Of a DNA stretch of 45,929 nt, positions 3,085 through 41,599 are shown piece after piece. The notes under the pieces are model-generated. The model worked only from the letters and a program-made list of their open reading frames with translations. It searched no databases and was not told the DNA's origin. This DNA is from a virus. Location of the stretch: IMG/VR virus record IMGVR_UViG_3300022561_000003; one strand, written 5' to 3'. Position numbers and translations under genes: made by a program. Position 1 is the stretch's first letter. Each line of letters begins with the position of its first letter.

Positions 3085-3114
3085 ATTGTTAAAATTAAAA
3101 AGGTGGTTTTAATA

Positions 3115-4134
3115 ATGAATAAAGAATATGTATTAAATAATGAAACTTCAAGAATTGAATTACATTTTAGTAAAGAAGAATACGCAGCACTAGACGGAGT
3201 TACTAAAGCAGAATTAAAAAGTATATGCTTATTTTCTGGAAAATCTCAAGCGTGGGTAAGTAGAACTAAAAGTGGCCATTATAAAATAATTAATTTTGCT
3301 GAAAAATTAGGTTTTGTAAATGGTGGATGCAATGGGGAAATATTAACTCATGAAGAAGTAGCAGAAAATAAGATAATTAAACAGGAAGAGCAAATAGAAA
3401 AATCAAATGCAACATATCCTGAAATAGATATAAATGATATAGAGTCATATTTAGTATCAAAGCAATTAAGTGATAATGAAAATAGTAATGCATTTTTTAG
3501 AAATACACCTATAGATCATCAACATCAGCTACAAGAACTACTACAAAGTGCTAACAATGATATAGCAGAATTAAAGAATTTAGGATGTAATAATTATATA
3601 GAATATAAAGCTAAAACTATTCTCCAGAGCTTCAAGAAAAATTATAGTAATCAATATATAAAAGTATTAACTCAAAAGGGTAATAATCCTTCATGGATGG
3701 TAACAGGGCGTGGAAATATGAATGTAAGTAGATATAATAAGAAACAAGATCAACTTTCTAATATGCAACATCAATTATCAATATTAATAGATGAATACAA
3801 TGCAAAGATTAAAAACTTTAAATATCAAATTAAACATGAGAACGCACAAATTGTAAAAATTGAAATAGAAGAGACTTTAAAAAATGTTACTGAAGTATTG
3901 CTGACTAAAATTAGTAGAGAATTTGATCCAAGTGCTGTAGAAAATATATTTAGTAATCCAAGAAGTGAAATAAAAGGATATAGCTACAATGAAGAGTATT
4001 TCTTATTTAAAAATTGGGGATACTGGAGAATATACAATAAATTAGGGAATGAATTAAATGTAACTACAAGAACTATAAAAACATTAAAAGAAGCTAAAAC
4101 TCACTTGTCATATATAATAAATAATGTAGCATAA
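3115..4134 (+). CDS. hypothetical phage protein (possible DUF3560-like)
   Basis: RBS aaggtgg favours ATG 3115; motifs ELHFSK...AWVSR and PSWMVTGRGN recall DUF3560-type phage/plasmid proteins (weak, from memory). Confidence 0.65.
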   Translation: MNKEYVLNNETSRIELHFSKEEYAALDGVTKAELKSICLFSGKSQAWVSRTKSGHYKIINFAEKLGFVNGGCNGEILTHEEVAENKIIKQEEQIEKSNATYPEIDINDIESYLVSKQLSDNENSNAFFRNTPIDHQHQLQELLQSANNDIAELKNLGCNNYIEYKAKTILQSFKKNYSNQYIKVLTQKGNNPSWMVTGRGNMNVSRYNKKQDQLSNMQHQLSILIDEYNAKIKNFKYQIKHENAQIVKIEIEETLKNVTEVLLTKISREFDPSAVENIFSNPRSEIKGYSYNEEYFLFKNWGYWRIYNKLGNELNVTTRTIKTLKEAKTHLSYIINNVA

Positions 4135-5678: not shown

Positions 5679-5858
5679 ATGTGGCATCCAGTAATTGCCC
5701 ATATAGAAAGTGGAACGAGAATTAACAATGCAATTCATGAACTAGAAGAAGCATTATACCAAGAAGACACATTATGTTTTAATATGGATCAAGAAAAAAC
5801 TTCTCAAATTAAATTAGCAATGGAAATATTAAAAGGAAATAGAAATGATTTAATTTAA
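5679..5858 (+). CDS. hypothetical 59-aa protein (MWHPVIAHIE...)
   Basis: RBS gaggtg, abuts previous stop. Confidence 0.65.
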   Translation: MWHPVIAHIESGTRINNAIHELEEALYQEDTLCFNMDQEKTSQIKLAMEILKGNRNDLI

Positions 5859-6066
5859 AATATCCAATAAAAACACGATTTTATAGTATTTAAAAACTTA
5901 CTCTAGAAATTATAGAGGGTTGTTAAATTATAAGTATTTTATTTACTTTAATTGAAACTATTATTTAATTAAAACGTATATTGTATAATATGGGATATAT
6001 AAAGCAATATCTTATAATTTCAACACGTCTGTAATAATTTACAAACAAATTAAAGGAAGTGATTAT

Positions 6067-6547: not shown

Positions 6548-7648
6548 ATGAGTGAAATTATAATAAGAAGATCTGACATATGGATGGCTAATTTATCAGG
6601 AGATGAAGGAAACGTTTTAAAAGGTATTCATCCAGTATTAATTATAAGTTGTAAGAAATCTAATAATAGTACTACTTTGGTTAATGTTTGCCCTGTGACA
6701 AGCACTTTAAAGAGCAACATTACAAATATACCGATAGGAGCTGAAAGTGGACTCTTGCATGAATCTGTAGTGTTATGTGGTCAAGTACAAACAATAAGTA
6801 AGAAAGATTTATTTAAAAAAGTAGGATTTGCAAAACGTCAACTCATGGATTTAGTAATAAGAACAATAGTAAAACAAATTGAAGGTAAAAATAATGAATT
6901 AAGTATTACACAGAAAGAAAAATTAGATTATATGTTAAAGAGTATTAAGAAATTAATTAGTTTCAAAATTAAATATAATATTATAGATGTTGAAATAGAT
7001 GAGCAAATAGAAAATTCATTTTTAGAAATTAAAGATTATTGTAATTCTATTAATATTGATTACAATGGTTTAGGAAACTTAGAAATATTTAAAATACATC
7101 AAAAATCAAGAGAGAAAATAAGAGTAACGCAATTTAAAAAAGATTATATAACAGCAGTTAAATTGTCTGAGGAATATTTAAAGAGTTTATATGAAATAGA
7201 TTATACTGTATATGGTAATGAAATTTGTTCAGAATTAGAATGGGCATTGTATAATCTTTCTTTAGCAGTAAAGAAACTAGGAGAAATTGAAAGAAGTTAT
7301 AAGTTAGCAAAACAAGCATTAACTTTCAGTACAGAAGAAAATAGTAATAGAATATTAACATACTGGCTAATAGGAGAATGTTGTAACTTAATGGGATCTG
7401 AATATAAAGAAGAAGGAATTAACGTATTTGAGAAATGTATATCTTTTTATAAAAGTGTTGGAGAGAAAAAATATGAAATACTATCACAGTTTAATAAAGC
7501 AAAACTATTAAAAGATATAAATAGCATGGAAGAATTAATTAAAGAATATGAAATGACACAATTTAAAAACGTGTTGCATACATTTGGAGATATGGAAAAT
7601 GATGAAGTTCTTAAAGAATTGAAAATTGAATTAAATAATACTTTCTAA
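6548..7648 (+). CDS. PemK/MazF-family N-terminal domain fused to TPR-like helical domain; putative RRNPP-type peptide receptor
   Basis: N-terminus RRSDIWMANLS..G..HPVLIIS..N....VNVCPVTS...SVVLCGQVQTISK follows the NdoA/MazF pattern; C-terminus has TPR-like helices (WALYNLSLAVKKLGEIERSYKLAKQAL, TYWLIGECCNLMG, EGINVFEKCISFY, SQFNKAKL); RBS aaggaggt favours ATG 6548. Confidence 0.8.
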   Translation: MSEIIIRRSDIWMANLSGDEGNVLKGIHPVLIISCKKSNNSTTLVNVCPVTSTLKSNITNIPIGAESGLLHESVVLCGQVQTISKKDLFKKVGFAKRQLMDLVIRTIVKQIEGKNNELSITQKEKLDYMLKSIKKLISFKIKYNIIDVEIDEQIENSFLEIKDYCNSINIDYNGLGNLEIFKIHQKSREKIRVTQFKKDYITAVKLSEEYLKSLYEIDYTVYGNEICSELEWALYNLSLAVKKLGEIERSYKLAKQALTFSTEENSNRILTYWLIGECCNLMGSEYKEEGINVFEKCISFYKSVGEKKYEILSQFNKAKLLKDINSMEELIKEYEMTQFKNVLHTFGDMENDEVLKELKIELNNTF

Positions 7649-7928: not shown

Positions 7929-8246
7929 TTGAATAAAGAAGTGTTGGAGAAATTATGTAAAGAATATGGGTTTTCTTTTTCTATTATGGGTAAATATATT
8001 CAAATTGTAAGTAAGAGAGACACATATTATATATTGGATATGAATCATGAAGGAAGAAGAATTAAATTGTTTCACCAGAATATATATGCAAGCGCTGGAT
8101 TCCACAAACATGGAGAACATGAAAGTCTTAAAAATATATTTGCTAGTATTTTTAGCCATGATAATATCTACAATGTTGGTAGCAGAAACAATAAATTAAC
8201 TAGAATGACAGAATTATTTAATCAACTTCACAACACTCCAGCATAA
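7929..8246 (+). CDS. hypothetical protein (position analogous to the regulated gene downstream of aimP)
   Basis: RBS aaggggtg, TTG start 7929 (alt GTG 7920). Confidence 0.7.
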   Translation: MNKEVLEKLCKEYGFSFSIMGKYIQIVSKRDTYYILDMNHEGRRIKLFHQNIYASAGFHKHGEHESLKNIFASIFSHDNIYNVGSRNNKLTRMTELFNQLHNTPA

Positions 8247-8336
8247 ATAAATAATAATTGTAGCAAACAATCGAATAATAATGTATAATATAAGATAAAG
8301 AGGGCACAATATTAATATACAAGAGGTGAGAACATA

Positions 8337-8519
8337 ATGGAAGATCATTTTCTACTATTCCCAATACTGATTTTAGTAGGTATACTTTATGTAGCATGGT
8401 ACATTATAAAATTGATATGGATTACGTTAGGATTAATATTTATACTAATAAGAAAAATATATCGAAAAATTATGAATAAAAATGTAGAAGGAGTGAATAA
8501 TAACAATGTTATTAGATGA
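8337..8519 (+). CDS. small membrane protein
   Basis: RBS gaggtg; long hydrophobic stretch followed by basic tail. Confidence 0.6.
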   Translation: MEDHFLLFPILILVGILYVAWYIIKLIWITLGLIFILIRKIYRKIMNKNVEGVNNNNVIR

Positions 8520-9390
8520 GTATCTTGAATATCTAAAATCTACAGAAGGTAAGAGCTCTGGAACAATTACACAATATCACAACAGCATGAAGCTATTTAT
8601 GAATTATATGAAAGAAGATAAATACAGCATCACCAGAGAATCAATCAAAAAAATTAAAATATCTGATATTTATGGATTTTTAGCTACAATATCAGAATCT
8701 AATTCAGGAAGCTCCAGAAGAAATAAGATATCAGCATTAAAATCATTCTTTGAGTATTGTAAAGAGATTGAATTAGTAAAGCATAATATAATTGTAGACA
8801 TAAAGAAGCAACCAAAAACTCCAAGACGAATTCCTAAATATTTCAACCTAGATGAATGTAAATTATTAATAAGTTCAGTAGGCAAAAGAAATCTAATTAG
8901 AGATAAAATGATAATAATATTATTTCTATCTACTGGATTAAGATTAACAGAATTAATTAACCTAGATATAAATTGTGTGATTGACAACAACTTAACAATA
9001 ATCGGCAAAGGAAATAAAGAGAGGCCAGTGTATTTGAATCAAAAAATAATAACATTGTTAAAAGAATATCTATTAGAAAGAGGAGAATCAGATTCAAACG
9101 CATTATTCCTTAGTGAGCGAAATAACAGAATTTCTAAGAGTGCAGTACAGAATTTATTAAGAAATGCAATAGACAGAGCTGGATTGAAATTAGAAGGTGA
9201 AACTGACGTCCTAGTGCATGTTTTAAGACACTCGTTTGCTACAAATGAATATCAGAATGGAACAGATATTAGACTCCTCCAGGAAGTGCTAGGACATGAA
9301 GATATAGGAACGACTCAAATTTATACACACGTTAATAAGAAGCAAATGGAAAATCAAGCAGAAAATTCTATAATGAGTAGTATAATATAA
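8506..9390 (+). CDS. XerC/XerD-type tyrosine recombinase
   Basis: All catalytic residues present: TGLRLTEL, GKGNKER, HVLRHSFAT, LGHEDIGTTQIYTH; SAM-like N-terminal domain, 294 aa, no arm-binding domain. Confidence 0.95.
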   Translation: MLLDEYLEYLKSTEGKSSGTITQYHNSMKLFMNYMKEDKYSITRESIKKIKISDIYGFLATISESNSGSSRRNKISALKSFFEYCKEIELVKHNIIVDIKKQPKTPRRIPKYFNLDECKLLISSVGKRNLIRDKMIIILFLSTGLRLTELINLDINCVIDNNLTIIGKGNKERPVYLNQKIITLLKEYLLERGESDSNALFLSERNNRISKSAVQNLLRNAIDRAGLKLEGETDVLVHVLRHSFATNEYQNGTDIRLLQEVLGHEDIGTTQIYTHVNKKQMENQAENSIMSSII

Positions 9391-9448
9391 TGTAAAAAAT
9401 TGGTATAATCAAGTCGAACGAATTTATGTTAATATTACGTAAAATAGA

Positions 9449-9477
9449 TTGACAAAGTAACAATTAAATAATAAAAT
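9449..9477 (+). promoter_or_regulatory. sigma-A promoter with operator-like motif across spacer and -10
   Basis: TTGACA-17-TAAAAT; ACAATTAAATAATAA at 9460. Confidence 0.7.
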
Positions 9478-9500
9478 AATAAAGAGGATGTGTTAATAAA

Positions 9501-10136
9501 ATGAATGAGAAAATAGAATTATTAAAAGAATTAATTGAGAAATCTGAATTAACCGTACAACAAAAGATAAACAAAATCATCCAGACACTAATAAGAACAG
9601 AAGATCCAATTAAAGCTAGAATATTGAGTAATGAGATATTAGATGGTAAATTTGATAAGTTAGAAAATCAAAGTATTTTAAATTTGGTAACAGCATTTAA
9701 TGATAACGAATCAATAGTAGTAAGCAATCAAACAGAATACAATGATGTTAAAGAAGATACCCTATTTAATAAAAATGATTCAAACGAAAACAAAGCAATC
9801 AAGACATTAGAGTATCAATTGAAAGTAATGCAATCTCAGATGGAATCCTTAGAATACAATAATAATAAAAAGATGAAAGAACTAGAAGAATTAAACAATA
9901 AACGAATAGACGAACTAACTAAATCAAATAATGAATTGTCTGGATTAAATAGTAGATTAGTTGCAAGATTAAGTTTAACTAAAAATTCTAAACTGATTGA
10001 AGTATCAGATGAAAGTATTAACGAATTATATATTAGAAACTTAGAAACAGCAGTAACTGAATATGAAGAAGCGTTTATCGTAAAAGGAATAGTTCCAAAG
10101 ACTTATTACAAATTAAATAATAGAGAGGGAGAATAA
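9501..10136 (+). CDS. coiled-coil hypothetical protein
   Basis: 211 aa, heptad-rich LEYQLKVMQSQMESLE...LSGLNSRL. Confidence 0.75.
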   Translation: MNEKIELLKELIEKSELTVQQKINKIIQTLIRTEDPIKARILSNEILDGKFDKLENQSILNLVTAFNDNESIVVSNQTEYNDVKEDTLFNKNDSNENKAIKTLEYQLKVMQSQMESLEYNNNKKMKELEELNNKRIDELTKSNNELSGLNSRLVARLSLTKNSKLIEVSDESINELYIRNLETAVTEYEEAFIVKGIVPKTYYKLNNREGE

Positions 10137-10141
10137 AAATT

Positions 10142-11080
10142 ATGAGAACTCAAAAATATTCTAAATTATATATTACTATTTATGACGAATTAAATAATAA
10201 GGGAAATGTTATTAAAAACATTCTAAAAACTGAAAAGGAATTAGATATTGAATTATTAGATTGGAAAGATGAACAGTTAGTTATTTTCTTAAAGAAATTT
10301 GAATCAATATCTCCAGTAAGTTTAAGAAAAAATTTAACGATATTAAGAGAGTTTGCTAATTATATTTGTAAAGAAGAAAATCTTGAATGTCCTATATTTA
10401 CATTAGAAGAATCTGTTTTTATGAGTTTGATTGATACAGATAAATTGTTATCCGTAACATTATCTTATGAACAGTTTCAGAACATCAGAGGACAGCTAGG
10501 AATGGCAGGTATAGGAGAAACAGTAAACTACAGAGATAAGCTTATTTTTGAACTCGCATGGTTTGGCGTTACTGAAGATGAAATGAGAATGTTAAAAGAG
10601 TCTGATATAGAATATGTTGATAATAAAGGAATGGAAGTTGCTATATTAAATCTAAATACTGGTAAAACTGTAAGAATTGATGATCCAGAAGTTATTGATG
10701 ATATTAAAAAATGTATAGTAACAGATTCAATTACTAGAGTCGCTAAAGATGGCAGATTTAAAACTACTGGATACAGAGATTCAGAGTACCTACTAAGAGC
10801 TGGAAAATCAGGTGGAACATCTCCTAATTCATTCTTTGGTAAACCTGCTACAGCACTAAAAGGAGCTTTTGTTAAACAAGAAATAACTTGTGATGGAATT
10901 AATGTCTTTGATTTGAGCTTAGACGATATTAGGAGGAGCAGACTGGTGCTGTTACTAAATAAAAAGAATGAAGAGTATTTTAACTTTGAAACTGTTGCAG
11001 CAATATATAATCTTAAGACAATTTCTGCGATTAGATGGTACCGAGAAATAGCTGCAATGAAATATCCAGAGGTAAAATAA
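10142..11080 (+). CDS. degenerate tyrosine-recombinase-fold protein, MrpR/YopR-like putative lysogeny repressor
   Basis: YRDKLIFELAWFGVTEDEMRMLKESDI aligns to box I with R->T; LSLDDIRRS aligns to HxxR with H->D; no LGH. Confidence 0.65.
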   Translation: MRTQKYSKLYITIYDELNNKGNVIKNILKTEKELDIELLDWKDEQLVIFLKKFESISPVSLRKNLTILREFANYICKEENLECPIFTLEESVFMSLIDTDKLLSVTLSYEQFQNIRGQLGMAGIGETVNYRDKLIFELAWFGVTEDEMRMLKESDIEYVDNKGMEVAILNLNTGKTVRIDDPEVIDDIKKCIVTDSITRVAKDGRFKTTGYRDSEYLLRAGKSGGTSPNSFFGKPATALKGAFVKQEITCDGINVFDLSLDDIRRSRLVLLLNKKNEEYFNFETVAAIYNLKTISAIRWYREIAAMKYPEVK

Positions 11081-11168
11081 TGAAGCCTGGAACAACACTA
11101 ATATTATTAAGTTTAGTGTTGTTCTTAGTCAGCATCAACAATCAAATAATAATAAGGGATGGGGATAA

Positions 11169-11561
11169 ATGATGAAAGAATTTAATAATAAAGATTTTGT
11201 TAAAACTGAAAAATACGTAGCTATAACAGGAGACAATTTTGACTCAGATAGACAATTTGAAATAGAAGTTGATGGAGTACAAATAACGTTATGTATGGAT
11301 GAACAGAATAGGCTCATTCAGATACTCTCAGCCGATGGAGAAGTTATTAGTAGTAAGAATACCAATGTAGCTAAAAAGTGCCTACAGAGAGTCGTTACAA
11401 CGTCTAGAGAGGCTACATATACCGACAAGCAAGAAAGGTTCTGGTCGTTCTACCTAGATGATATAAGACCTAATTCAAAATGTCCTAAAGTAGATAATTC
11501 CACTATGTATGCGATTCAAGCTTTGGATTGGGAGACAATAAAGTTAGAATTAACCAAATGA
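11169..11561 (+). CDS. hypothetical phage protein
   Basis: 130-aa ORF with purine-rich RBS. Confidence 0.7.
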   Translation: MMKEFNNKDFVKTEKYVAITGDNFDSDRQFEIEVDGVQITLCMDEQNRLIQILSADGEVISSKNTNVAKKCLQRVVTTSREATYTDKQERFWSFYLDDIRPNSKCPKVDNSTMYAIQALDWETIKLELTK

Positions 11562-11575
11562 ATTATATCGGAATA

Positions 11576-11604
11576 TTGACAATTAAATAATAAATTTGTA
11601 GAAT
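11576..11604 (+). promoter_or_regulatory. sigma-A promoter overlapped by operator-like motif
   Basis: TTGACA-17-TAGAAT; motif ACAATTAAATAATAAAT starts inside the -35. Confidence 0.75.
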
Positions 11605-11763
11605 AAATAGTCAAGTAGGAAATTATTGTAAACATTATTATTATATTGTACCGATTGACTATAACAAATTTAGAATATATATTATGTTATAATAAAATAT
11701 AAAGTTTATCAGACGTGCATGGTATAATAAAGAAAATAATTTATATGAAAGAAGGAATTAATA

Positions 11764-11943
11764 ATGGATCACACAATATTAGCAACATATTTTAATGGAG
11801 ATAATTATAGTTTTGATTGGTTAGAAAATGATGAAGATACAGCAGAATGGTTAGATGAAAGTAAAGACAAGTATACTCAGATAGAAATTATTAAAGTTAA
11901 TGTTATGGAAGTAATATATCAGTCTAAAGATATGGAGGAATAA
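11764..11943 (+). CDS. acidic 59-aa protein (MDHTILATYF...)
   Basis: RBS gaagga, open frame, not in ORF track. Confidence 0.6.
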   Translation: MDHTILATYFNGDNYSFDWLENDEDTAEWLDESKDKYTQIEIIKVNVMEVIYQSKDMEE

Positions 11944-11944
11944 T

Positions 11945-12136
11945 ATGAAAAGTATAATTAATTATGTTTCTAATTTTATTAAAATGATAAAAGATTTACC
12001 AGATGAAATGTTATATGTGCAACTAAATAATGCGGGGTTAGTGACTCCGACTGTAAAAATGAGTAATAAGGAGCCATTTCTTACTAAAGAAGAAATTATA
12101 AAAGTTAAAAGTATAAAAAATATAACCATATTATAA
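11945..12136 (+). CDS. hypothetical phage protein
   Basis: RBS ggagg. Confidence 0.65.
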   Translation: MKSIINYVSNFIKMIKDLPDEMLYVQLNNAGLVTPTVKMSNKEPFLTKEEIIKVKSIKNITIL

Positions 12137-12177
12137 AAGTAGTTTTCAAGTTAAATTATAAGGAGGTAAATAATATA

Positions 12178-12510
12178 ATGGAAGAATCGGGAACATCTTT
12201 AAATTGGAAGAAAATAAGAGCTGAAGAATTATCGAGGAAAGGTTATTCCCCGGAAGATATGGGATTATTAGAATTACTTAAAGAAGATTGTTTAAATGTA
12301 GATATATTAAAAATGTACCTTGAAAGATATATCCATAATAAAGTTATGTATGAGAATGATAGTAAAAAGTTAAGAGATAAAATACACATCAAATGCAAAA
12401 TTATGAATGAATGGATTACAGAATGGAGCGATTTTGATTCTGTATCATGGTATCAGGAAGGACTAGATGAATTAAGTAAAATGATTGGATCATTACAGAG
12501 ATTAACTTAA
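12178..12510 (+). CDS. hypothetical phage protein
   Basis: RBS aaggaggt. Confidence 0.75.
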   Translation: MEESGTSLNWKKIRAEELSRKGYSPEDMGLLELLKEDCLNVDILKMYLERYIHNKVMYENDSKKLRDKIHIKCKIMNEWITEWSDFDSVSWYQEGLDELSKMIGSLQRLT

Positions 12511-12526
12511 AAATGAGGAGGACTAA

Positions 12527-12748
12527 ATGATAATTAAATGTGGTAGAGAAGAGTTTGATTTAAATGAAAAAGATGTAATTTTAGATAATGGATGTTGCTT
12601 TCAGATATTAACCAGAGAGACAGGAAAAGGATGGAATAAGTATGCTCCTATAATAGCTAAACGCCTCGCAAATAAACTGATTAAGAATGGTGATTTATGT
12701 TTAAAAGAAGCTAAGGCAAATAGAAATCTATATTATAGAATAAGTTAA
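12527..12748 (+). CDS. hypothetical phage protein
   Basis: RBS gaggagg. Confidence 0.75.
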   Translation: MIIKCGREEFDLNEKDVILDNGCCFQILTRETGKGWNKYAPIIAKRLANKLIKNGDLCLKEAKANRNLYYRIS

Positions 12749-12767
12749 AAGAGAGAGGAGGATATTA

Positions 12768-12971
12768 ATGAATAAAAGTGAAGCATATATTTCGATGGAA
12801 CAAGGTAAAAAGATTACACATATATATTTTGATAGTGACGAGTTTCTATATATAAAAGATGGAATTATGTATACAGAAGATAATTACAGATTTGATAATA
12901 GAGATGATGGTTATGATGGTTGGAAAGATAGAAATAGCGAATCATTTCAAAGAGATTGGAATATCTATTAA
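12768..12971 (+). CDS. hypothetical phage protein
   Basis: RBS aggagg; stop begins a dif-like site. Confidence 0.75.
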   Translation: MNKSEAYISMEQGKKITHIYFDSDEFLYIKDGIMYTEDNYRFDNRDDGYDGWKDRNSESFQRDWNIY

Positions 12972-13004
12972 AAGAGAATTTTTATAAGAAAGGAGAAAAA
13001 ACAA

Positions 13005-13562
13005 ATGTTTTTAAACTTATTTAATAGTTCAAAAAGAGATCAAAATATTCAAAATGAAAGAAGTAAAATATATAATGAAATATCTATTATAAATAAACAA
13101 CTTCATGATATATATAATCCTTCCCCAAAAATAAAACCTTGGAGATATAGATTAAATGCAGTACCTACTGATTATGAAGAATTTACTATAAGATATCTTG
13201 AGAATTTAAAAATGAATGAAGTTTTGCACAATAAACCAGAGTATAAAGAATATGGATTGATGAATGATAGTAAAATGAATTTTGAAGAATTAGATAATAA
13301 ATTACAATTAGACACTGATAATAAATATAAGTTATTTGAAATTATAAATGAGCATCAATTAGACGATTTTGAAACTCAAATGTGGGCTGAATCTGCAATT
13401 AAAGATATTCATGTTATAAAGATAAGTGAGCAAGAAAAAGATGAATGTAGGCATAAGTATGGATTAGCTAAAATAGATGATAAGCAACTAGAAACCATCA
13501 AACAATTAAATTCAGAGAAAGAAAATTTAGAAAAACAATTAAACTTGTTACGTAAATTATAA
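13005..13562 (+). CDS. hypothetical protein (putative cassette gene)
   Basis: RBS aaggag; between sites 12969 and 13566. Confidence 0.75.
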   Translation: MFLNLFNSSKRDQNIQNERSKIYNEISIINKQLHDIYNPSPKIKPWRYRLNAVPTDYEEFTIRYLENLKMNEVLHNKPEYKEYGLMNDSKMNFEELDNKLQLDTDNKYKLFEIINEHQLDDFETQMWAESAIKDIHVIKISEQEKDECRHKYGLAKIDDKQLETIKQLNSEKENLEKQLNLLRKL

Positions 13563-13600
13563 TTATAAAACAGGTATTTTATATTAAGGAGGATGAGAAA

Positions 13601-13798
13601 ATGAAATATAAAGTATTAATAGAAATTCAAGGAGAAAAAGATTGCTATAATTGTCCCATAAATGAATCAGTCGGTGGATATGGAAATACAAAATGTAATT
13701 TGCAAGGTGATATGATATTTGATTATGATAGTAAAAATTATGGTAAATCAGATAAGGCTAAACAATTAGAAAAATGTCCATTAAAAGAAATAGAATAA
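13601..13798 (+). CDS. small Cys-rich protein (putative cassette gene)
   Basis: CxxCP...C...CP; between sites 13566 and 13801. Confidence 0.75.
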   Translation: MKYKVLIEIQGEKDCYNCPINESVGGYGNTKCNLQGDMIFDYDSKNYGKSDKAKQLEKCPLKEIE

Positions 13799-13860
13799 TT
13801 TAAAATGTTAATTTTATGGTATGAATAATAAAACTAAAATAAAAATTAGGAGGGGTTTAA

Positions 13861-14106
13861 ATGTCAATTTATGAAATGGTTAAAAAGTTAATAGGAAGTA
13901 TAGAACCGTATGGAGATTCAGGTATTGATGAAAAACGTTCAACTAATCTTGAGGAACACATAGACCTTGTTTTTGGTTTAGTTACTGACTTAATTAAAAC
14001 GGCAGATTTTAAAAATAGAGGTGAAGCTAGTATACAGAAATTAGGAATAGCAGCTAACGATGCCCTATTGGAAATAAAAAATTCGATTGATAATAATATT
14101 GGATAA
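13861..14106 (+). CDS. hypothetical protein (putative cassette gene)
   Basis: RBS aggagg; between sites 13801 and 14104. Confidence 0.75.
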   Translation: MSIYEMVKKLIGSIEPYGDSGIDEKRSTNLEEHIDLVFGLVTDLIKTADFKNRGEASIQKLGIAANDALLEIKNSIDNNIG

Positions 14107-14142
14107 AACTATTATTTTAATATAGGAAGGAGTTGTTAATGA

Positions 14143-14346
14143 ATGGAGTATCAATGTCCTCTGTGTAAGGAAATGTTAATTAAAACAAATGATGACTATA
14201 AATGTACTAATGAAGATTGCAATATGAAAAGAGCTGGAAAAATAAAGATAAGAGAAGATTATCAAGATATTTTTATTGAAGATAAATTGACTAATAGAAT
14301 TACGAAAGAAAACAAATTATGTACCATATTTAAAATAACAAATTAA
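14143..14346 (+). CDS. small zinc-ribbon-like protein
   Basis: CPLC...CTNEDC. Confidence 0.65.
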   Translation: MEYQCPLCKEMLIKTNDDYKCTNEDCNMKRAGKIKIREDYQDIFIEDKLTNRITKENKLCTIFKITN

Positions 14347-14359
14347 TTTTAAATAACAT

Positions 14360-14389
14360 TTGACAAATGAATAATACTTATGGTAAACT
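14360..14389 (+). promoter_or_regulatory. sigma-A promoter with operator-like variant
   Basis: TTGACA-18-TAAACT with extended -10 TG; motif variant ACAAATGAATAATACTT. Confidence 0.6.
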
Positions 14390-16225: not shown

Positions 16226-16522
16226 ATGAGTGAATCAAATAATGAAGTAAGAGGACACTTATGTGAGGGATTAAAGAGATTCCAGGAGAACTCCACTTAT
16301 TCGTGTATACCTAAATTTAATAAAGAGGGTGAAGTTGAGGGGTGTGATGCGACAAATGAAATTAGAATTATATTTTGTCCATTCTGTGGTGAGAAATTAA
16401 TTGAATCGAAAGAATATAAATATACTTGTGTTGAATGTAAAGATACATGGAAATCATATGATAAAAATATAATATGTTGTGACGAATGTTATAGTGGTGA
16501 TTTAACAATAGAAGTGATATAA
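16226..16522 (+). CDS. Cys-rich zinc-finger-like protein
   Basis: FCPFCG, CVEC, CCDEC. Confidence 0.7.
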   Translation: MSESNNEVRGHLCEGLKRFQENSTYSCIPKFNKEGEVEGCDATNEIRIIFCPFCGEKLIESKEYKYTCVECKDTWKSYDKNIICCDECYSGDLTIEVI

Positions 16523-16553
16523 AACATGTCTTTTAAAAGAAGGAGGAAATGGT

Positions 16554-19413: not shown

Positions 19414-19505
19414 TTACGTAATACAAATATAGATGATAAAACATCTTATAAAATTTATGTTTTAAAAGAATATAAAATAAATACCAAATTATTTCAATTA
19501 TTCTA

Positions 19506-19807: not shown

Positions 19808-21517
19808 ATGAATATTATAGTAGGAAATAGTTACAGGGTAGTAAAAAATAGAGATAGTCAATATGGCGGATGTAATGATATAAAATTAATAGAAGGCATG
19901 ATTGTCAAGGTAACAAATTCTGATACTAATTTCCGAAGAGAAGGTTCTTTTGATATTACAGATGAAAAAGGAGGAGAACACTGTTGCGAGGCATGTAATT
20001 TAACAGAAATAAATAATAATGAGGAGAAAAAAGTTATGAAGAAAATATTAAAAGTATTATGTGTGAATAATGGTTTCTACAATTTAAGTAATAGACAATT
20101 TTGTACAGAGGGAAGAGAGTATAAAGTAATCGAAGAAACAGACAAAACTCTTACAATCCTGGATGATGGAGAATATGAAAATGAAGTAGAGTTTAGAAGT
20201 AATAAATGGTTTGAGTTACTATATGAAGAAAAGGAGAATGTTGTTGTGAAAATGTTTAAAATAGGAGATAAAGTAAAAATAGTAAATAAGGAAATAATGC
20301 TATCAAGTATTGTAGAAGTAAATATAGGAGATACAGCAGTAATTGAAAAAACTTTAGGCTTTGACAATGAGTATAAAATAATAATGGATAAAGATAATGA
20401 TTGGTGGTATGCAAAAGCTGAAGAGTTAGAATTAATTATAAATAATCCTAAGTTTGAAATAATAATTGAAGGGGATACAACTACAGTAAGGTTAGATGAT
20501 GGTGTTGAAGGCGTAGCAAGACGTTACTACAAGGATGAATATAGTAGAGGGTTTGGAATAGTTGCAGCTCTATCAAAAGCTTTAGACATAGATTTAGTAG
20601 CTGAAGTACTAAAAGTTGTTAAGTCGTATGATAAACCTACAGTGGAAGAAATTAAGGCATTTGCAGATAGAACTGCATTTAGATACAATAAATTTAAAGT
20701 AGGGGATATTGTAACAGGGTTAGATGATGGTACAGAATGGGGTATTACAAATATAAATATGACTAAGGGAAAAGTTATACAGGCTAGATTAAGATTTGTT
20801 TGTATTGAAGTATTAGAACATAAAGATAAAAGTCAAATAGGATATATAAGTGGAGAAATTGAATCTAAATACTTTAAATTAGTAGAAACGAAAAAAGATC
20901 CTAAATTTGGAATTGGAGATATTACTATTAGTAATAAAACTACTGGAGAAGTAATATATAAAGGTAAAGGAAATATAACTTCAGACGTATCGTTTAAAAA
21001 GACAATTTTAAAGGAAGGAGTTAAGATAGAGCCAATAACATTTAAAAAGGGTGACAAGGTAAGGATTTGGGAAGGAATAGTGGTTGATCAGAAATATGAT
21101 GGGGAATGTCAAGTTACATCGGATATGAGAAGGTATATCAACAAAGAAACAATAATAGTTGGAGAAAAATATCATAACACTAGATTTGAATTAGAAATAG
21201 ATGGTGGTGATTGGTCATGGAGTCCTAGTATGCTTGAGTTAGTTAAAGAGAAAGAGTTAAAAGTTGGAGACAGAGTTTACTATAAGAGTATGAATGGAAC
21301 ATATGCTGTGTGTGAAATCAACAGAATAAAAGGAAAAGAGGTATGGGGAAAATGGTCTGGTAAATACTTTGATACTATAGAAGAGTTGCCTAAGACAATA
21401 AATGAATTTGAAGAGGTCAGAAAGAATTCAGGTAAAACATTTGTGCAGTTGTTTCAAGTTAAAAAGCTCATTTTAATAGATGATACTAAACCAAAAAATC
21501 CAGTAATAAGATGGTAA
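19808..21517 (+). CDS. multidomain phage protein built from repeated SH3/KOW-like modules
   Basis: Repeated (F/L)KxGDxV starts and LEL/FKL ends; internal RBS-like sites. Confidence 0.75.
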   Translation: MNIIVGNSYRVVKNRDSQYGGCNDIKLIEGMIVKVTNSDTNFRREGSFDITDEKGGEHCCEACNLTEINNNEEKKVMKKILKVLCVNNGFYNLSNRQFCTEGREYKVIEETDKTLTILDDGEYENEVEFRSNKWFELLYEEKENVVVKMFKIGDKVKIVNKEIMLSSIVEVNIGDTAVIEKTLGFDNEYKIIMDKDNDWWYAKAEELELIINNPKFEIIIEGDTTTVRLDDGVEGVARRYYKDEYSRGFGIVAALSKALDIDLVAEVLKVVKSYDKPTVEEIKAFADRTAFRYNKFKVGDIVTGLDDGTEWGITNINMTKGKVIQARLRFVCIEVLEHKDKSQIGYISGEIESKYFKLVETKKDPKFGIGDITISNKTTGEVIYKGKGNITSDVSFKKTILKEGVKIEPITFKKGDKVRIWEGIVVDQKYDGECQVTSDMRRYINKETIIVGEKYHNTRFELEIDGGDWSWSPSMLELVKEKELKVGDRVYYKSMNGTYAVCEINRIKGKEVWGKWSGKYFDTIEELPKTINEFEEVRKNSGKTFVQLFQVKKLILIDDTKPKNPVIRW

Positions 21518-22212: not shown

Positions 22213-22416
22213 ATGAAATATTATGTGAAAGATTTAGAAGAAAAGAGCAATCCATATCCTTGTACAAATTGTAGTCATGGAAGTGGAAGTTATAGTAATG
22301 GAGAAGATAAAAATGGAAAGTACATTGAATCTAAGAGTTGTAGGGATGATGGAAAATGTTCGGAATATAAAGAATACAACGAGAGAAAAGCTCTTAATCA
22401 AAATATTCTACTTTAA
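22213..22416 (+). CDS. small Cys-rich protein (putative cassette gene)
   Basis: between sites 22169 and 22414. Confidence 0.7.
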   Translation: MKYYVKDLEEKSNPYPCTNCSHGSGSYSNGEDKNGKYIESKSCRDDGKCSEYKEYNERKALNQNILL

Positions 22417-22468
22417 AAGTTGAGTTTTATTGTATATAAAAATAATTTAAAATATCTTTAGGAAACTG

Positions 22469-33631: not shown

Positions 33632-33772
33632 TTAACAAATAATTTTGGGGTTAAAATGAAAGAAATATCAGAACTTGAAACCTACTCATAGCCCCATTCT
33701 AAATCTGTTAAAAGAGCCATTTTAATAGATGAATAATATGAAAAAAATGTGTAACTAAAGGGAGTGATAAAA

Positions 33773-33997
33773 ATGTGTAAATATTGTGAGGGCGGAGAAT
33801 TACTTTATAAAGGAACTTGGTGGGAAGTTAGAATTTATAATGATTACGGTGAACGTGAATTATGTTCCGAGATTGATATACCAGGATATGCGGGTGTTTG
33901 TGATAATGTGACAGTAGATATTAAATTTTGTCCAATGTGTGGGAAAGAATTAACAAGTAAATCTAAATATCAAATAGAGGAAGAGAACTTAAAATAA
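33773..33997 (+). CDS. small zinc-finger protein (putative cassette gene)
   Basis: CKYC...FCPMCG; between sites 33709 and 34029. Confidence 0.75.
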   Translation: MCKYCEGGELLYKGTWWEVRIYNDYGERELCSEIDIPGYAGVCDNVTVDIKFCPMCGKELTSKSKYQIEEENLK

Positions 33998-34207
33998 TTA
34001 CGTCACACTTCAACCAAAGGATGTATTTTAAAAGGTCAATTTTATATTAATATTTATTACAATTAAACAATAATTTATAGGCTAGATTTAGCTAAATTAT
34101 TAAAAGTTGAAACTGGCTTATATCCCCATAGTCAATGTTATAAAAGGAAAATTTTATAAGATGAATGTAACAACTAAATAATAATTAAATTAGAGGAGGT
34201 TTTTGTT

Positions 34208-35452
34208 ATAAAAAAATTAAGAGTACGTACATTATTTAGTGGAATTGGTGCTCCAGAAATTGCATTAAGGGATGCTAAAATTCCTTATGAACTAGTTGAT
34301 TTCTGTGAGTTTGATAAATATGCAGTTAAGAGTTATTGTGCAGTACATAATGAATTAGAAAGCAAGAATTTGGGAGATGTAACAAAAGTTGATGGTAAAG
34401 AACTAGAATACGCAGATCTTATGGTATGGGGGTTTCCTTGTACAGATATTTCGGTAGCTGGACTTGTTAAAGGATTCATAGATGAAGAAGGAAATGTAAC
34501 TAGATCAGGATTATATTATGAAGGACTTAGAATACTCAGAGAAACTATGCCAAAATATTCTATAATTGAAAATGTAAAGAATTTAGTAGGAAAGAAATTT
34601 AAAGAACAGTTTGAGTCTATGTTAGAAGATATAAAAGGATTAGGCTATAATAATTATTGGAAAGTTCTCAATGCTAAAGATTTTGGTATCCCTCAAAATA
34701 GAGAAAGAGTATTTATAATTTCTATTAGAGAAGATGTTGATACTGGTAAGTTTGAATTCCCTAAAGCATTCGATAATGGATTAAGATTAAAAGATTTCTT
34801 AGAAAATAATATAGAACCTAAATATTATATATCTCAAGAGAAAACTGATAAATTAATTAGTCAATTAAAAGATAAAAATAATTTAATGCTAGATATGTGT
34901 CAATCTAAAAGAGAGGGACATCCAAGGGAATACACAGATTATTCGCCTACTCTAAGTGCAAGGGATTATAAGGAACCAAGATTAATAAATGAAGGGAGTC
35001 AAACTGAACCTAAAATAATTGCTTCAAGAGGAAGATATATTGATGGCAAAATAGAGCAACAATTTGAGCCTAGAAAAGATGATATAACTAACACTTTAAC
35101 CACTGTCCAAAAAGATAATTTGTTATTAGAAAACAAATGTGTTCAGCTTGGGAATTTGGAACAACCAGGATATCATGAATCATGCAATAGAGTATATTCC
35201 CCAGAAGGTATCGCAAGAACTCTTATGGGTGGCGGAGGAAATTTAAATGATAAAGCTGGACAGTATCTAATTGATTATAAAGTTAGAAGGTTAATACCAC
35301 TTGAATGTTGGAAACTTATGGGATTTACAAATGAAGACTTTCAGAAAGCAAAAGATGTTGGGATTTCAGATAGTCAATTATATAAACAAGCAGGAAATTC
35401 TATTGTAACAAATGTTTTGAAAGAAATATTTAAGAACTTATTTGACAATTAA
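34208..35452 (+). CDS. DNA (cytosine-5)-methyltransferase, probable ATA start
   Basis: Motif I LFSGIG lies upstream of the track's TTG; motif IV GFPC, VI ENV, VIII QNRERVF, X YKQAGNS; RBS gaggaggt 7 nt before ATA 34208. Confidence 0.92.
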   Translation: MKKLRVRTLFSGIGAPEIALRDAKIPYELVDFCEFDKYAVKSYCAVHNELESKNLGDVTKVDGKELEYADLMVWGFPCTDISVAGLVKGFIDEEGNVTRSGLYYEGLRILRETMPKYSIIENVKNLVGKKFKEQFESMLEDIKGLGYNNYWKVLNAKDFGIPQNRERVFIISIREDVDTGKFEFPKAFDNGLRLKDFLENNIEPKYYISQEKTDKLISQLKDKNNLMLDMCQSKREGHPREYTDYSPTLSARDYKEPRLINEGSQTEPKIIASRGRYIDGKIEQQFEPRKDDITNTLTTVQKDNLLLENKCVQLGNLEQPGYHESCNRVYSPEGIARTLMGGGGNLNDKAGQYLIDYKVRRLIPLECWKLMGFTNEDFQKAKDVGISDSQLYKQAGNSIVTNVLKEIFKNLFDN

Positions 35453-35544
35453 ATAATAATTTAGAAATTCAGTTAAAACATTCATTTTAAGATAAGAAAG
35501 GAGATAATATTATTAAAAATTCAAGATTAGGAGAATCAAAAAAA

Positions 35545-40854: not shown

Positions 40855-40914
40855 AACAGTAATAATTTAAAATAACCTTTTTATAAGAATTAATAATAAC
40901 AGAGGAGTGATATT

Positions 40915-41472
40915 GTGTCAGCAACAAATAGAGGAACAGTTCGAGCAACAGCAGATTTTTACGCTACACCAGAAAAAGTGATTCATAATTTATTAAATCA
41001 TTATAAAATAAAAGATGGTGAAATACTAGAGCCATCCGCAGGTAATGGTAACTTTACTAAGGTGATAAAAGAAAGAGAAGGAGATAAAGTGTTTATTACT
41101 TCGCTAGAATTAAGAGAAGAAGAATCTGAAAATCTTAAAGAATATAGTGATAATGTCATAATAACAGATTTCCTAAAATTCAAGACTAATAAAAAATACG
41201 GAACCATCATAGGTAATCCACCTTATAGTTTAGCAATGGAATTTATAGAACATTGTTTTGAAATAGGTGATGAGAATACAGAAATAATTATGTTGCTCAG
41301 AACTGCATTTTTAGAAAGTAAAAAGAGATATGATTTCTGGCAGAAACATCCTGTTAACGGATTATATGTTCTAAGTCAAAGACCATCATTTACTGGTCAT
41401 GGTACAGATGCTACATCTTATGCATTCTTTGTATGGAATAATAGTGGGAAACAAGAAATAAAAGTTATATAA
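40915..41472 (+). CDS. small DNA N6-adenine methyltransferase
   Basis: DFYATP, ILEPSAGNG, IIGNPPY. Confidence 0.88.
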   Translation: MSATNRGTVRATADFYATPEKVIHNLLNHYKIKDGEILEPSAGNGNFTKVIKEREGDKVFITSLELREEESENLKEYSDNVIITDFLKFKTNKKYGTIIGNPPYSLAMEFIEHCFEIGDENTEIIMLLRTAFLESKKRYDFWQKHPVNGLYVLSQRPSFTGHGTDATSYAFFVWNNSGKQEIKVI

Positions 41473-41475
41473 CTC

Positions 41476-41504
41476 TTGACAACTAAATAATAATTTGGTA
41501 AGAT
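41476..41504 (+). promoter_or_regulatory. sigma-A promoter overlapped by operator-like motif
   Basis: TTGACA-17-TAAGAT with extended TG; ACAACTAAATAATAATT 41479-41495. Confidence 0.8.
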
Positions 41505-41599
41505 ATACACAAGGAGTTAATCATAAGGAAAGGAGGATAAATATCCAATAAAATTTAACTTTTATATGATGATTAAATAATAATTTTAGGAGGTCATGT

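Follow-up and report, generated by a model that had tools for sequence, protein, structure and literature searches.

A 16-base palindrome repeated in the early regions of SPbeta-like phages marks joints of flank reassortment and may act as a linker for module exchange

How the genomes of tailed phages stay ordered despite such free exchange of genes has been debated since the modular theory of the late 1970s, which was reportedly set out by Susskind and Botstein in 1978 and by Botstein in 1980 and postulated conserved "linker" sequences between modules. Clear examples of such linkers are few; "boundary sequences" in lambdoid phages are said to have been described by Clark and colleagues in 2001. 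Short repeated motifs can also serve as repressor operators, as the stoperators of Cluster A mycobacteriophages do. Closer systems are the promoter-early stem-loop (PeSL) cassettes of T4-type phages (Arbiol et al., 2010, PMC2839356; Comeau et al., 2014, PMC4122927), the pdif/dif modules of Acinetobacter plasmids (PMC6449649, PMC13141974) and the SPBRE operators of the SPbeta master repressor MrpR/YopR/SroF (PMC10516654; 10.1101/2025.11.27.690993). Here we describe a 16-base palindrome, TAAAA-N6-TTTTA, that recurs throughout a 45,929-nucleotide stretch of phage DNA (the window; bases 2892-48820 of the 125.8-kb virus record IMGVR_UViG_3300022561_000003) and that separates single genes in a short array at 12969-14119. 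One strict motif is conserved in its geometry across a phage family, behaves as a collinear anchor with its spacers in conserved order, and marks joints at which flanking sequences have been reassorted. We tentatively propose that it is the recognition site of a paired, dimeric protein that doubles as a linker joint for module exchange among SPbeta-like phages, a reading we would place a little short of an even chance.

Exact copies of the palindrome number 19 in the window, compared with 1.15 ± 1.07 expected from 100 dinucleotide shuffles (maximum 5). When spacings from 0 to 11 were scanned across the whole record, which is approximately 76% complete and 27-30% G+C, 23 copies were found at a spacing of 6 and one to five at every other spacing, and versions with one mismatch were not enriched. 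Chance or base composition as the origin of the copies is excluded by the spacing scan and the shuffles. Twenty-one of the 23 copies are intergenic. They concentrate in the early region just 5' of ribosome-binding sites, with 17-55 nt between the end of the site and the next start codon for most copies, and in five of the 23 the TAA of the site doubles as the stop codon of the preceding gene. The inner 5 bp of each arm are invariant, the outer arm is weakly conserved, and the spacer, or loop, has no conserved sequence; the spacers of the 23 copies are all different, and none of seven genomes repeats a spacer. Outer positions are weakly mirrored, with T at -5 matched by A at +20 and C/A at -4 by G/T at +19, and the recognised stretch may therefore extend to approximately 26 bp. 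In a covariation test these outer positions paired no more often than they would with independent sides, and the predicted RNA hairpins at the sites (0 to -5 kcal/mol) are close to shuffled-sequence values. Since the arms do not covary and the folds are weak, the two half-sites are likely read on duplex DNA by a dimer rather than as a folded strand, and an RNA or DNA hairpin with covarying arms was rejected on the same tests. A sigma-A promoter within the site was also rejected: the mirrored TAAGAT is the other half-site, and the ribosome-binding site of several copies is too close for a transcript start. No sigma-A consensus is tied to the palindrome, and the distance between site and promoter is not fixed. 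A literature search found no paper describing TAAAA-N6-TTTTA, SPBRE being a different motif.

The window genes all lie on the plus strand and have early and replication functions, including an NAD-dependent ligase, a DnaE-type polymerase, a helicase, a primase, RecJ, a Sak4-like annealing protein, NrdD, a methyltransferase and HNH endonucleases. Judged by its polymerase and ligase, the phage carrying the window (W, the genome in the 125.8-kb record) belongs with the large DnaE-encoding siphoviruses of Firmicutes, a group that includes SPbeta, c-st, phiCD211, Geobacillus E3 and the vB_BanS phages of B. anthracis. Its nearest relatives are uncultured or are Clostridium prophages, for example of C. 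estertheticum; a query of IMG/VR with the ligase returned no relative. The relatives compared here are in part metagenome contigs, while G001 (a complete 126-kb Clostridium provirus), L020 and all of the Bacillus phages are derived from isolates. Simple open reading frame (ORF) and ribosome-binding site calls were used for the genes in all comparisons, and homology thresholds were derived from background percentiles.

The palindrome is common to the SPbeta-like phage family, from Bacillus to Clostridium. Three relatives linked to W through the ligase (L014, L015 and L016) have 12, 8 and 11 exact sites per approximately 22 kb, at N6 only; L019 has six in approximately 12 kb and L020 five in approximately 21 kb. 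In G001 there are 32 exact sites, compared with 2 at N7 and 2 for the reversed pattern. Counts exceed those of the control pattern in SPbeta (34 vs 2), c-st (31 vs 7), phiCD211 (26 vs 7), Geobacillus E3 (30 vs 7) and Thrax2 (19 vs 2). The SPbeta sites share the anatomy seen in W: their left arms contain stop codons, and genes and sites alternate in places, as in yoqC-site-yoqD-site. In both genomes two sites flank a methylase gene (mtbP, within 113664-115059, in SPbeta; a methyltransferase, within 34141-35489, in the window). A more distant gut phage, MT835469.1 (L012), has TGAAA-N6-TTTCA instead, with eight copies in 43 kb just 5' of ribosome-binding sites (positions 722, 4931, 5965, 6822, 13887, 24296, 27654 and 35396); the TAAAA form is not enriched there (7 vs 5 for the control).

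Comparison between relatives supports the view that the sites delimit exchangeable gene modules. Across the Clostridium genomes, 17 pairs of sites from different genomes have identical spacers, compared with 2.4 expected (maximum 10 in 2000 shuffles), and 13 of the 14 pairs obtained in a run without L031 have no detectable homology in either 80-nt flank. G001, L014 and L015 all have the spacers AGCTTA and GATCTC in one order, and for each spacer the three left flanks are unrelated to one another, as are the three right flanks. At flanks that are homologous but diverged, the spacers are unrelated or the arms degenerate. The site spacers of the Bacillus phages SPbeta, phi3T, SPR and Goe11 form one collinear series. 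Among 66 same-spacer pairs from these four phages, both flanks are shared in 22, only the right flank in 22, only the left in 4 and neither in 18; by the count of 22 to 4, the site goes with the downstream gene and not with the upstream one. Recombinant combinations of flanks are present at TTCAAT, GTTTTA and TATTTA, and the TTCAAT site of Goe11 joins a phi3T-type left flank to an SPbeta-type right flank. In a 3-kb stretch that is hypervariable between SPbeta and phi3T, few exact words of at least 13 nt are common to both phages; the three sites belong to these words and are collinear. The slot between the sites TATCTC and GATCAA contains an extra methylase in phi3T (within locus L036, 23517-25987) and yorT in SPbeta.

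Mosaic junctions in the Bacillus set fall in 44 of 49 gene gaps that bear a site (approximately 90%) and in 102 of 187 that do not (55%), with odds ratios of 5-7 per reference genome and p values from 0.002 to 0.07 in tests that are not independent across references. The sites are thus preferred but not sole joints. Across W and G001, sites occupy 33 of 197 gaps between non-conserved genes and 3 of 65 between conserved genes. Nearness of SPbeta/phi3T BLAST block ends to sites was, taken alone, no better than the share of gaps that bear a site.

In the array, four exact sites bound three single genes in a run. The TAA of the site at 12969-12984 (spacer GAGAAT) is the stop codon of ORF 12768-12971. 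The 185-aa gene that follows (13005-13562, plus strand) is an ORFan without a family match, for which a homolog search returned only identical copies of the same phage. The next site, at 13566-13581 (CAGGTA), begins 3 nt past the preceding stop, and 5 nt after it begins the ribosome-binding site of a Cys-rich 65-aa gene (13601-13798, plus strand) that also has no family match. Between the sites at 13801-13816 (TGTTAA) and 14104-14119 (CTATTA) is an 81-aa gene of phrog_26501 (13861-14106, plus strand), whose stop codon is the TAA of the latter site. A 67-aa zinc-ribbon-like ORF (14143-14346, plus strand) follows, and then a strong promoter at 14360. The three array ORFs had no match to common families, and searches of the array DNA and proteins against GenBank phages gave no match.

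The initial annotation had described these four sites as each separating one unrelated ORF, with a ribosome-binding site shortly after each site and a promoter only upstream of the whole. This description holds: all four are exact copies of the enriched motif, and the Shine-Dalgarno sequences of the array ORFs begin 5-31 nt past each site. A strong sigma-A-type promoter (TTGACA-17-TAGAAT, 11576-11604, plus strand) lies upstream, with a second at 11655, and consensus scans of 11700-14350 found no sigma-A-like promoter scoring 11/12 and no plus-strand terminator, which is consistent with co-transcription of the array genes from 11576 and 11655. The annotation had also placed a variant site at 12134, opening a three-gene block. 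That element (12134-12146) reads TAAAA, 3-4 bases and TTTT(C), and its wrong spacing puts it outside the palindrome family. Because counts at this spacing are at background, 11764-12971 is better described as a block of five small plus-strand genes (59, 63, 110, 73 and 67 aa) with no site between them. The last of these, ORF 12768-12971, shows weak similarity, short of the cut-off, to the Tad2-like domain of Thoeris anti-defence (PF11195, E=0.002; phrog_3474); it heads the array and may be a counter-defence gene.

Gene order at this locus varies among relatives. In the closest relative, L019/L031, the genes 3' of the operon shared with W are wholly different and again have sites. The only array gene with a homolog elsewhere is 13861-14106, which is 71% identical to L016 9615-9860. 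The L016 gene adjoins the ligase, in a different neighbourhood, with a degenerate one-mismatch site upstream and an exact site downstream, and nucleotide homology between the two genomes spans from the upstream site to the stop codon. The initial annotation had reasoned that invariant gene order, and homologs elsewhere without the flanking sites, would speak against a cassette system; since gene order is not invariant, neither was found. No ongoing shuffling was seen among five contigs from different samples that are 99.8-100% identical across the array. An apparent gene replacement in contig L009 was rejected as a swap, being a 4-nt indel in 99.8%-identical sequence. This indel, which L010 shares, alters the called genes after 13798 to 76, 57 and 58 aa from 81, 67 and 52 aa.

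The plus-strand gene at 8506-9390, 3.6 kb upstream of the array with four genes between, encodes an Xer-like tyrosine recombinase in which the catalytic residues R, K, HxxR, H and Y are all present. Along its full length it is matched best by XerA and XerD, with IntI4 matching at residues 208-277 only. It is part of a conserved sro-like operon (7929-11561) of six genes, encoding 105 aa, 60 aa, the Xer-like enzyme, 211 aa, a YopR-like recombinase-fold protein and 130 aa, in a layout that resembles the SPbeta yopP-yopQ-yopR (sro) genes. The operon is kept in L019/L031, L020 and G001, where the Xer-like protein is the best conserved (92%, 62% and 59% identity, respectively); the YopR-like protein is 81% identical in L019/L031. 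The only SPbeta counterpart of the Xer-like enzyme is YopP, with HxxK and 25% identity across 112 residues. Because SPbeta has 34 sites and no close homolog, the Xer-like enzyme is unlikely to be the family-wide partner of the palindrome; its candidacy as a universal partner is weakened, and the idea that the adjacent recombinase drives the array is not upheld. A ParB/KorB-type binder was rejected, with no ParB_N domain in W, G001 or SPbeta.

A second tyrosine recombinase, YomM-like, is encoded outside the window (genome 65207-66217, locus L037, minus strand; Pfam Phage_integrase match). It was found in every genome tested, with 53% identity in MT835469, 48% in Thrax2, 31-32% in E3 and SPbeta, and partial matches in c-st and phiCD211. 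Its catalytic set, R-K-HxxR-H-Y, is complete in W and G001, and SPbeta YomM has HxxK. At 85% identity between W and G001, it is the third most conserved of 45 shared proteins (median 48%). By co-occurrence only, the YomM-like protein is our best candidate for a binder or partner of the palindrome.

The YopR-like protein probably recognises another sequence. It is encoded at 10142-11080 (plus strand), at the position of SPbeta YopR/SroF, to which it has faint similarity (21% identity). A second motif in this genome, AAC-AATTAAAYAATAATT, is an asymmetric 17-mer (AACAATTAAAYAATAATT), oriented and separate from the palindrome, with 33 near-exact copies genome-wide that always run with transcription. 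It is often inside the spacer of TTGACA promoters or directly before a ribosome-binding site, and is mostly missing in relatives. Copies in the window, co-oriented with the genes, are at 34, 2573, 14400, 15333, 19511, 19777, 23879, 27713, 33630, 34061, 35447 and 43701. YopR/MrpR/SroF has been described as a monomeric recombinase-fold repressor that acts on the long asymmetric repeat SPBRE (PMC10516654; 10.1101/2025.11.27.690993). As this description matches the 17-mer and not the palindrome, we assign the YopR-like protein to the 17-mer, which is probably its operator. The MrpR peaks of SPbeta (aimR, yonT, yonP and others) fall elsewhere than its 34 palindromes. SPBRE operators and stoperators do resemble the palindrome as single protein-binding motifs in many copies within short intergenic spaces, and the SPbeta binder has a recombinase fold. 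However, they are long, asymmetric and monomer-bound, whereas the palindrome has a perfect symmetric core.

We propose that the palindrome is recognised on double-stranded DNA by a paired, dimeric DNA-binding protein conserved across the SPbeta-like family, for which the YomM-like protein would be the first choice. The site, placed where an early gene or group of early genes begins on its 5' side, would have a primary docking role. An identical stretch of 16-23 bases at a fixed position in otherwise unrelated DNA could then act as a linker when related phages or prophages recombine, and genes between two sites would behave as exchangeable modules. Exchange would occur through the short shared sequence, for example by means of the phage Sak4/YorG-type annealing protein, rather than by dedicated cutting and rejoining. 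The array at 12969-14119 would represent four joints in a run with one gene per slot, read from the promoters at 11576 and 11655. In lab-evolved SPbeta x phi3Ts hybrids and extrachromosomal phage DNA, 15 of 16 recombination sites were at homology (10.1101/2020.05.06.055103). This is in line with a linker, as are the travel of the site with the downstream gene and the large share of junctions that have no site. Methyltransferases occupy some of the slots, along with other genes that probably serve host takeover or counter-defence, and the exchange mechanism therefore bears on how the anti-defence repertoire is renewed.

Several points weigh against a short-homology linker. A length of 16-23 bp is short for efficient homologous recombination, and the binder of the palindrome is a guess. 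In the Bacillus set, 70% of junctions are at gaps without a site, so mosaicism does not depend on sites, and the gap-junction tests are based on simple gene calls and are not independent across reference genomes. The inverted arms and 6-bp spacer, the unduplicated spacers and the intact tyrosine recombinases suit a dedicated site-specific reaction equally or better. That reaction would be a true cassette exchange, a natural form of recombinase-mediated cassette exchange at dif/lox-like cores, with two inverted arms and a 6-bp crossover region cut by a YomM-like enzyme or, in this clade, also by the Xer-like one. We regard it as possible but on balance doubtful, and rank the short-homology linker slightly above it. 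Since the spacers all differ, sites of one genome would not recombine together, only with the same-spacer site of a co-resident relative, and the architecture with its strict 6-bp spacing, the lack of a duplicate spacer within any of the seven genomes, and the intact catalytic sets of the Xer-like enzyme and of the YomM-like protein in W and G001 all fit. So do the identical, collinear 16-mers with unrelated DNA abutting both edges in Clostridium and Bacillus phages, the clean slot replacement between TATCTC and GATCAA, where phi3T has the methylase and SPbeta yorT, and the drift of spacers at diverged homologous flanks set beside their identity at unrelated ones. Yet homologous genes of distant relatives abut sites with unrelated spacers, SPbeta YomM and YopP have HxxK for HxxR although the Bacillus phages show the same pattern, and the five near-identical contigs contain no circles or rearranged variants. 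In addition, most junctions lack a site, and the 22 right-only to 4 left-only asymmetry is not predicted for a symmetric site. Extended to the family, this explanation would mean that a system dedicated to the exchange of gene cassettes, with 20-35 heterospecific dif/lox-like sites per genome, is common to the SPbeta-like phages of Bacillus, Geobacillus, Clostridium and Clostridioides, a proposal we put forward as speculative and rather unlikely. Each site would then have its own 6-bp "address", cut and rejoined by the conserved YomM-like recombinase, and co-resident relatives could trade early genes one slot at a time, with methylases and likely counter-defence genes among them, while leaving their own genomes unscrambled.

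The palindrome could instead be purely regulatory or architectural, an operator acting as a roadblock, insulator or silencer at early-gene starts in the manner of stoperators or KorB operators, with no role in recombination; its link to junctions would be a by-product of compact gene boundaries and selection on the operator. The position of most sites in the early region just 5' of ribosome-binding sites, their travel with the downstream gene, their conservation over a very large evolutionary distance, and the finding that 55% of site-less gaps are also junctions would all be expected. We nevertheless consider this improbable. An operator leaves unexplained why a non-consensus 6-bp spacer is identical when both flanks have been replaced and drifts when the flanks are kept, and does not account for the enrichment of junctions (90% vs 55%); the distance to promoters is not fixed, and the three genomes searched encode no ParB_N domain protein. 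We give almost no weight to a role in RNA, in which an intercistronic hairpin would govern how the polycistronic early mRNA is processed, stabilised or translated. The sites do follow a stop codon and precede the next ribosome-binding site, in transcription-sense orientation, but the stem would be five A-U pairs with fold energies near those of shuffled sequence, the outer arms do not covary, the loop sequence is not conserved, and some copies are intragenic or in regions read on the other strand. As SPbeta and phi3T are tractable laboratory phages, both the binder and the choice between homologous and site-specific exchange are directly testable.

Among the described systems, PeSL cassettes are the model for our preferred linker reading. 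In both, short conserved motifs lie in the intergenic spaces around small ORFans of hyperplastic early regions, the stretches inserted, deleted or replaced in one relative with respect to another stop at the motif (here in 90% vs 55% of gaps), and a motif with a primary non-recombination role would serve as a recombination linker. A PeSL, however, is approximately 50-70 bp of promoter and G+C-rich stem-loop, whereas the A/T palindrome described here is 16 bp long, leaves its 6-bp spacer free and has neither a promoter nor a stable hairpin; the host range also differs, being that of Firmicutes siphoviruses. Like pdif modules, the palindromes are numerous arm-6-bp spacer-arm sites bounding discrete accessory-gene modules that occur in different contexts (here 13861-14106 compared with L016, the phi3T methylase slot and the reassorted flanks), and Xer-type tyrosine recombinases are the presumed agents. 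The strict N6 enrichment gives the palindrome the two inverted arms around a 6-bp centre that characterise Xer/dif sites, and the intact Xer-like and YomM-like enzymes are candidates for a cognate Xer-family recombinase. In contrast, pdif sites are asymmetric XerC/XerD 11-6-11 sequences in alternating orientation served by host XerCD, while the palindrome has a symmetric 5-6-5 core with weak outer arms and is a phage element whose candidate recombinases are phage-encoded. Linkers and boundary sequences of the modular theory are alike in being short conserved sequences between modules proposed to direct exchange, but earlier ones were weakly supported and lineage-specific, and here one strict motif extends from Bacillus to Clostridium with per-site "address" spacers in conserved order.

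The initial annotation had likened the array to integron cassettes. Promoterless, co-oriented single-gene units with a repeated imperfect palindrome between them and a promoter upstream are common to both, and the part of the cassette proposal in which sites delimit exchangeable units read from an upstream promoter stands, given the reassortment of flanks. The integron-like mechanism does not. The array has at its head neither attI nor, directly beside it, an IntI-type integrase, a tyrosine recombinase with an extra segment specific to IntI; the palindrome spans 16-28 bp and has no R/L boxes or attC-like fold, whereas attC is a folded single strand of 57-141 nt with R''/L''/L'/R' boxes. The palindrome goes with the downstream gene (22 vs 4 pairs), unlike attC, which is at the cassette 3' end and goes with the upstream gene, and neither excision products nor shuffling were seen, the latter among the five contigs.

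The remaining exact sites of the window are in varied contexts. Two, at 1607 and 1839 (1607-1854), surround a 58-aa ORF, as two others at 40868 and 41549 (40868-41564) surround a 185-aa ORF (40915-41472). The site at 3096-3111 has the ribosome-binding site of gene 3115-4134 in its spacer, the site at 5868-5883 is 3' of ORF 5679-5858, and that at 22414-22429 overlaps the stop codon of ORF 22213-22416. The 16-mer at 16520-16535 (spacer CATGTC) recurs with its ribosome-binding site in L031 at 12721, between unrelated genes; the 98-aa gene upstream of the 16520 site has a homolog in L015 (71%), and the site in which that homolog ends carries another spacer. At 19449-19464, a site is approximately 57 nt 5' of a TTGACA promoter carrying the 17-mer. 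Four sites are grouped at 33709, 34029, 34141 and 35474 (33709-35489), the last two flanking a DNA methyltransferase (34370-35452) as at SPbeta mtbP. Two sites at 20995 and 21460 (20995-21475) are inside a 569-aa ORF (19808-21517). The position of the latter is kept in homologous, length-variable genes of L014 (16313) and G001 (85485), and it may mark a domain-swap joint. Finally, the gene at 6548-7648, at the position of SPbeta aimR, encodes a MazF/PemK-domain protein fused to a long C-terminal region, and the two parts are separate genes in L020.

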